64,000 bases of DNA from Escherichia coli (GTDB taxonomy: Bacteria; Pseudomonadota; Gammaproteobacteria; Enterobacterales; Enterobacteriaceae): assembly GCF_044324875.1 (NCBI RefSeq), contig NZ_CP172185.1. One strand, 5' to 3'. How positions within the stretch are numbered: position 1 is the stretch's first letter; the number at the start of each line of letters is the position of its first letter. Shown piece by piece: positions 44,341 through 44,681 of the stretch. The notes under the pieces were generated by a model. The model ran no database searches. It was given only the letters and a program-made list of their open reading frames with translations, and was not told the DNA's origin. Both the position numbers and the translations under genes were made by a program.

Positions 44341-44681
44341 CAGAATAACTTCCTCAATGGAGCGCCGTTCCCCGTTCAGAAACGTGAGAACGTGACATAC
44401 TGCCAGGGCATGAATTGTGTTGCGTTGGTTTGTAGATTTTTTTAACGCTTATGATCAGTATCATTTGCGCGGTATGTTGCGCAACCCTTTAACAACAGAG
44501 CTTTTCGCTGCATTAATGCATAATAACGCGAGTTTATGGCAGGATTAATGAATAACCATTTGTTATGGAAAGATTTTTATTTGTTTAATCTGCAATAATA
44601 CTGATTGGTGATTATTTTTGGCATATGTTCATTCGATTATTTTTTATGCAGCTCAATAACATAATCTCCATCACCAGATGA

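Follow-up and report, generated by a model that had tools for sequence, protein, structure and literature searches.

The window analysed here, 64,000 nucleotides in length, is part of the Escherichia coli chromosome and covers the nrfG–gltP–yjcO–fdhF region. The gene order, nrfD-nrfE-nrfF-nrfG followed by gltP, yjcO and fdhF, is that of K-12 MG1655 and of a strain in which the intergenic region is 100% identical. nrfG ends at nucleotide 44682, and the nrfG-gltP intergenic region therefore corresponds to nucleotides 44341-44681. With a length of 341 bp and a GC content of 0.25-0.42 it is the 340-bp AT-rich leader of the original prediction. This 341-bp stretch was matched in 5,420 of 5,426 complete E. 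coli genomes. An 81-bp core (44425-44505) was 100% identical in 5,314 of 5,420 E. coli records (98%), whereas only 708 of 5,421 records showed at least 99% identity over the full 341 bp. Since the core is near-uniform and the complete region is not, variation within the species is concentrated in the AT-rich upstream part. The features discussed below are collected in Table 1.

A divergently oriented acs gene adjoins gltP on its upstream side in most Enterobacteriaceae, the two being separated by approximately 370-400 bp. Escherichia and Citrobacter carry nrfG directly upstream of gltP and have kept the gltP-proximal ~235 bp of the regulatory region; acs is found ~7 kb further on in the window. 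Scanning of the minus strand after nrfG (44682-44341) for intrinsic-terminator-like sites gave none, and transcription of the nrf operon may be terminated by Rho or continue into the gltP promoter region. In the annotation of strain CFSAN061763, which possesses the 100%-identical intergenic region, nrfE is a frameshifted pseudogene. The long ORF in the nrfE region of the window (~45651-47368, minus strand) begins only at 47333, which is consistent with a frameshift near the 5' end.

Table 1. Features of the gltP upstream region. Coordinates are those of the window; a dot marks features listed without a strand.
Feature	Coordinates	Strand	Basis or comment
gltP coding sequence, 437 aa	43027..44340	-	ATG at 44340; ORF list and RefSeq annotation of the strain with the identical region
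Stem-loop just upstream of the Shine-Dalgarno	44366..44392	-	MFE fold
CA-rich conserved block CCAACGCAACACAATTCA, candidate GcvB R1 pairing site	44411..44428	-	Conserved; pairing assignment putative
Predicted transcription start, ~44448, -108 from ATG	44446..44450	-	Predicted from the position of the -10
Defective -10 hexamer TACTGA (-7 is A; T one base out of register)	44455..44460	-	Up-mutations, PWM
Extended -10 TG, one base upstream of the -10 hexamer	44462..44463	-	Invariant in 56 sequences
Second palindrome arm GCGCAA in the promoter spacer, last base 1 before the extended -10 TG	44465..44470	-	Partly conserved
-35 hexamer TTGCGC, 3/6 match to TTGACA; one palindrome arm	44479..44484	-	Invariant TTGC, fixed spacing
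Palindrome TTGCGC-N8-GCGCAA (gltP-sense TTGCGCAACATACCGCGCAA)	44465..44484	.	-144..-125 from gltP ATG; sequence read and repeat finder
ATAAACTCGCGTTAT, second, weaker dyad copy, 29 bp downstream of the perfect copy	44523..44537	.	1 mismatch to ATAAC-N5-GTTAT; partly conserved block
ATAACAAATGGTTAT, perfect ATAAC-N5-GTTAT dyad, LysR-type T-N11-A	44552..44566	.	In almost all Enterobacteriaceae aligned

The feature that drew attention to this region is a palindrome which had been placed at 44464-44483. It is present, but one base away from that interval, ttgcgcggtatgttgcgcaa occupying positions 44465-44484 of the plus strand. The arms, TTGCGC at 44465-44470 and GCGCAA at 44479-44484, are perfectly complementary and enclose an 8-nt spacer. 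The near end lies 125 bp from the gltP ATG, in agreement with the distance first given, and the palindrome is identical in K-12 MG1655 (4294337-4294356). Because the GCGC core is itself self-complementary, the same bases can also be read as a direct repeat, with two copies of TTGCGC at 12-bp spacing, and as a 10-bp perfect palindrome (GTTGCGCAAC, 44476-44485). For the same reason dyad symmetry arises easily in this sequence, only four further bases being required to match. When perfect inverted repeats with arms of 6 bp and a spacer between 0 and 12 were counted over the 64-kb window, 304 were found (4.75 per kb); in 28 of these the spacer is 8, as in the palindrome. Three such repeats occur in the intergenic region, compared with 1.6 +/- 1.8 in Markov simulations, 26% of which produced at least three. 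The palindrome is no rarer than chance.

In order to define conservation, reference genomes were scanned with a peptide pattern, which yielded 80 Enterobacterales gltP loci; the upstream regions were aligned and then anchored gap-free, and the conservation columns were taken from 56 distinct Enterobacteriaceae sequences. The consensus of the conserved block is aAGG.TTGCgc...A..cc.tgCA.ATG.TACTgATa...cgCgTTAAAAAaccC. Columns invariant in all 56 sequences include the TTGC, the TG, and a T, A, T and T within TG.TAcTgAT. The spacing TTGC-N16-ATG(A/G)TAC is kept even in Yersinia, Serratia, Hafnia and Erwinia. Conservation of the palindrome in related genomes was found for one part of it only: the degenerate TTGC/GCAA is mostly kept, while among the 56 sequences the perfect palindrome occurs only in E. 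coli, E. albertii and three others (L041, L055 and L054 (7-nt spacer)). The second arm is mostly GTGCAA, the C and A of its GCAA being conserved in at least 90% of the sequences. In Yersinia, Serratia and Erwinia this arm is not kept and the dyad is lost, whereas the promoter elements persist, and Hafnia possesses an independent TTGCGG-N7-CCGCAA at the palindrome's place. Within the spacer, the A at position 10 of the 20-mer and the CA at positions 18-19 are at least 90% conserved; these positions are not obviously explained by contacts with RNA polymerase.

The register of the gltP promoter is established by published up-mutations. Knöppel 2018 (PMC5933015) evolved E. coli MG1655 in rich media and recovered gltP promoter mutations with increased expression in nine of ten LB populations and in one Mueller-Hinton (MH) population. 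Nine of these mutations were A-115T and one was a deletion of C-118; the mutants had become able to use glutamate. Position -115 is nucleotide 44455 (A) of the window and -118 is nucleotide 44458 (C), the reference bases agreeing in the window and in K-12. A-115T changes the hexamer to TACTGT, with the -7 T restored, and the C-118 deletion changes it to TATGAT, which matches the consensus at 5/6 positions. In both mutants the TG remains one base upstream and TTGCGC 18 bp away. Since both mutations repair the TTGCGC-18-TG.TACTGA register, the gltP-sense arm of the palindrome at 44484..44479 is the -35 hexamer.

The candidates were scored with a simple position-weight model (PWM), its frequencies following published promoter compilations. 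The wild-type TTGCGC-18-TACTGA scored 1.3, the A-115T form 7.5 and the C-118 deletion form 10.3. Other registers were rejected: TTGCGC-16-GATACT is left unchanged by one up-mutation and destroyed by the other, and the -10 registers GATACT (16-bp spacer) and GATCAT would have a G at -11 in half of the genera and are not both improved by the up-mutations. The gltP core promoter (-35, TG and -10) is thereby placed to the base (Table 1). The recurrence of A-115T and of the C-118 deletion in LB-evolved E. coli is also explained, both changes restoring the -7 T of a crippled -10.

The spacer between TTGCGC and TACTGA measures 18 bp and is within the 16-19 bp range of sigma-70 promoters. The -7 T is almost universal in those sigma-70 promoters which possess an extended -10 (TGn). 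The gltP promoter resembles this class in its TG, its weak -35, the length of its spacer and the presence of a T at -12 and an A at -11, and, as in the class, expression is raised by single changes that restore the -10 consensus. It differs in that -7 is A in the wild type, the up-mutations creating the T, with an invariant T one base downstream, and in that the spacer has conserved positions which the polymerase does not need. The crippled hexamer, of the TACTGA type with the invariant T out of register at 44454, is conserved in all 56 Enterobacteriaceae sequences. The weakness of the promoter is explained by the A at -7 and by the position of the required T one base too far downstream. Since this defect is conserved across the Enterobacteriaceae, expression presumably depends on upstream activation, for which the YdcI sites described below are candidates.

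On this evidence the palindrome would not be a separate unit; it would represent the upstream two-thirds of the gltP core promoter. TTGCGC (44484..44479) would serve as the -35, the last part of the spacer would happen to read GCGCAA, and the TG and the poor TACTGA would follow. RNA polymerase carrying sigma-70 would start at ~44448, giving a 5' UTR of ~108 nt with the GcvB target and a stem-loop. We consider it rather probable that the palindrome is ordinary core-promoter sequence, that is -35 plus spacer, and that its symmetry is incidental. Its overlap with the -35 and spacer of gltP places it in important DNA, and its sequence is essentially already explained as promoter. Location inside the transcribed 5' UTR had been named as a point that would speak against the original prediction; the palindrome is instead upstream of the start predicted for the promoter which the up-mutations define.

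Wild-type transcription may begin at a site other than ~44448. The simple PWM ranks two AT-rich candidates further upstream higher, namely TTAATC-17-TATTAT and ATGCCA-18-TATTAT. The present assignment is independently backed by genomic SELEX, in which the sigma-70 holoenzyme bound the nrfG-gltP spacer (Shimada 2014), and by the near-uniformity of the 81-bp core among E. coli records. The hexamers were given in that study as ATGCCA-18-TATTAT, which appears to be a sequence-based assignment further upstream. The present assignment corrects it for this spacer. Beyond annotation the finding matters little.

For YdcI, ChIP-exo binding upstream of gltP and activation of this gene have been reported (Gao 2018), and the motif was described as an AT-rich inverted repeat separated by 7 nt, or T-N11-A. 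lldP and gltA-sdhC are other reported targets of this protein. TTGCGC-N8-GCGCAA, being GC-rich and of other geometry, does not fit the motif; the dyad at 44552-44566, 68 bp upstream of the palindrome, fits with 0 mismatches and that at 44523-44537 with 1 mismatch. Copies of ATAAC-N5-GTTAT with no more than one mismatch were also found upstream of lldP and in gltA-sdhC (K-12), where ~0.02 per region would be expected by chance. The copy at 44552-44566 is probably bound by YdcI and is a better candidate for a regulator site than the palindrome. The two candidate sites, at ~-111 and ~-82 from the predicted start, are further upstream than in the usual LysR geometry.

The palindrome had been proposed to be a regulator binding site controlling glutamate/aspartate uptake. 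The proposal stands in so far as the sequence is cis-regulatory promoter DNA for gltP; a palindromic operator of glutamate/aspartate uptake found no backing in covariation, in consensus matches or in further copies. In a test of the six pairs over the 56-sequence alignment, pairing (G-U allowed) was 89.3%, compared with 89.5% in column shuffles, and the arms showed one double change, as did the shuffles. Strict Watson-Crick pairing, from the outermost pair inward, was 68, 95, 95, 80, 25 and 50%. The 4-bp core TTGC/GCAA is thus kept because each of its columns is conserved, not through co-evolution, although such a core is also what a protein-binding site would look like. The comparison with operator consensus sequences that had been suggested was made with 15 consensus strings (CRP, FNR, NtrC, PurR, TyrR, ArgR, Fur, LexA, Cra, ArcA, NarL, CytR, MetJ, GntR-like and the sigma-54 promoter), none of which fitted the palindrome better than shuffled sequences. 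The sole low-mismatch hits, FNR-like and Fur-like, lay over the -10 and not over the palindrome. A PWM constructed from 44 orthologous 20-mers gave no site of 6 bits or more upstream of gltI, gltS, dctA, aspA, dcuA, nhaA, gltA-sdhC or lldP; the highest-scoring of its other matches over 93 kb fell inside the acs coding sequence, at chance level.

Could the 20-bp dyad nevertheless be the operator of some other factor, most simply of a repressor that blocks RNA polymerase at the -35 and spacer and keeps gltP low until a signal arrives? The dyad spans ~-36 to -17 from the predicted start, a typical position of repressor operators. A degenerate TTGCnC-N8-GnGCAA is found in most Enterobacteriaceae, the common form TTGCGCAGCATGCCGTGCAA being self-complementary at 16/20 positions, and the spacer positions conserved in at least 90% of the sequences, together with the TTGCGG-N7-CCGCAA of Hafnia at the same place, would also suit a bound protein. 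We regard this explanation as unlikely, since covariation between the arms is lacking, Watson-Crick pairing at the two innermost positions holds for just 25% and 50% of the sequences, none of the 15 consensus sequences matches, no copy exists upstream of gltI, gltS, dctA, aspA, dcuA, nhaA, gltA or lldP, and outside the Enterobacteriaceae the dyad is lost while the promoter elements persist. The selections for raised gltP expression point the same way: of ten independent up-mutations none fell in the palindrome, all were in the -10, and no regulator gene was recurrently inactivated. Knockout of a repressor would be a far larger mutational target than two changes in the -10, which by inference speaks against limitation of gltP by a simple repressor in rich medium. 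Operators of the TetR, MarR and LacI families in the -35/spacer region share with the gltP dyad its 20-bp length, 6-bp arms and location at -36 to -17; the gltP dyad differs from them in that it has no match to a known consensus, no further copies, no covariation, no conserved perfect symmetry and no mutations of the operator type. NtrC (GlnG) represses sigma-70 promoters which it overlaps. Its site, TGCACC-N5-GGTGCA, bears a superficial likeness to the common enterobacterial form, which contains TGCGC-N8-GTGCA, but the gltP half-sites are 18 bp apart as opposed to 17 bp, and the best alignment has 6/12 mismatches, no better than shuffles. That TTGCnC-N8-GnGCAA is the operator of a factor dedicated to gltP is somewhat more doubtful still. 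It has long been observed that glutamate can serve wild-type E. coli K-12 as a carbon source only after an increase in gltP expression, and if such a factor existed it would explain both this and the conserved spacer positions. Binding of a factor to the dyad would add one more local regulator of glutamate/aspartate uptake.

Two further explanations carry very little credence with us. In one, an activator binds the dyad, reshapes the promoter by twisting the spacer as do members of the MerR family, and so compensates for the 18-bp spacer and the out-of-register T of the -10. The conserved -10 defect suggests dependence on an activating mechanism, and the dyad, like the MerR-type operators of the merT, copA, zntA and soxS promoters, has its beginning inside the -35 hexamer. 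The spacer, however, is 18 bp and not 19-20, and the centre of the dyad lies ~5.5 bp upstream of that of the spacer, whereas MerR-type dyads are roughly 2 bp from it. To our knowledge the MerR-family members of E. coli K-12 all have other assigned targets, and the one factor reported at the gltP promoter, YdcI, has a different, AT-rich motif which is found upstream. In the other, which is just as improbable, the palindrome functions at the RNA level: as a hairpin it would terminate the nrf operon transcript or direct its processing at the end, or it would be a structural element of a long gltP leader transcribed from an upstream promoter. If transcribed, it would form a 6-bp stem of -8.5 kcal/mol; sense-strand G-U wobbles lift the apparent pairing to 89%, AT-rich promoter-like sites are present upstream in E. 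coli, and no canonical terminator follows nrfG. Against this, the stem is without a U-tract and a terminator scan finds nothing, the z-score of the fold is only -1.6, the arms do not covary, and the TTGC...GCAA hairpin is the MFE structure in a minority of the 20 genera folded (mean z -0.8). The hairpin has no Rfam match, and the palindrome lies upstream of the promoter defined by the up-mutations. Since most genera have the divergent acs upstream, nothing would transcribe the palindrome from that side.

Several other candidates in the same stretch were considered and discarded. A sigma-54 promoter (TGGTAC-N5-ATGCG, in some genera) was rejected, since half of the genera, E. coli among them, have GA in place of the GG, and since E. 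coli lacks the -12 GC. A small upstream ORF with its ATG directly after the palindrome, M(I/V)LIxRVKK, stops after 6 to 36+ codons and is without a Shine-Dalgarno; its ATG is upstream of the predicted start, and its apparent conservation is that of the TG and TA of the -10. On inspection of the alignment, an apparently covarying CCCT-N8-AGGG hairpin just upstream of the -35 proved to be a one-column register shift with no consistent set of pairs.

The -10 itself is covered by ATGAT-ACTG-ATCAT, a perfect 5-4-5 palindrome at 44451-44464. Read as FNR-like ATGAT-N4-ATCAT it differs from the FNR consensus at 2 positions, a resemblance confined to E. coli and reached by a fraction of 0.03 of the shuffles; the same stretch, 44451-44464, matches the Fur consensus at 13/19 positions. 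In an RNA-seq table for Shigella the entry for gltP is -1.32 and its other columns are empty; this is taken to mean lower anaerobic expression of gltP, without any FNR effect being reported.

The predicted first transcribed bases, GCGTTAAAAAA at 44438-44448, are almost invariant, a T, a T and five A's being conserved in at least 90% of the sequences and two A's in all. An Hfq A-rich site, an effect on the initial transcript and a second -10 are possibilities. gltP is a verified target of the R1 region of GcvB (Miyakoshi 2021), and the CA-rich block at 44411-44428 is the probable pairing site. RNAalifold, applied to the alignment of the 5' UTR, gave no consensus structure because of indels in the loop, and the sequences were folded individually instead. 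Most of the 20 genera folded have a hairpin at the position of 44366-44392, with different stem sequences (CGTTCTC/GGGGAACG, CTATTCC/GGAATAG and ACCAT/ATGGT, for example), which suggests, as far as predicted folds allow, a conserved structure in the gltP 5' UTR next to the Shine-Dalgarno.

Upstream of the core promoter, a 12-bp perfect palindrome (TGCATTAATGCA) occupies 44509-44520. It is contained in a 26-nt imperfect direct repeat (44498-44523 and 44530-44555; 77% identity, 32-bp spacing), and both are conserved in Escherichia only, and partly in Citrobacter.
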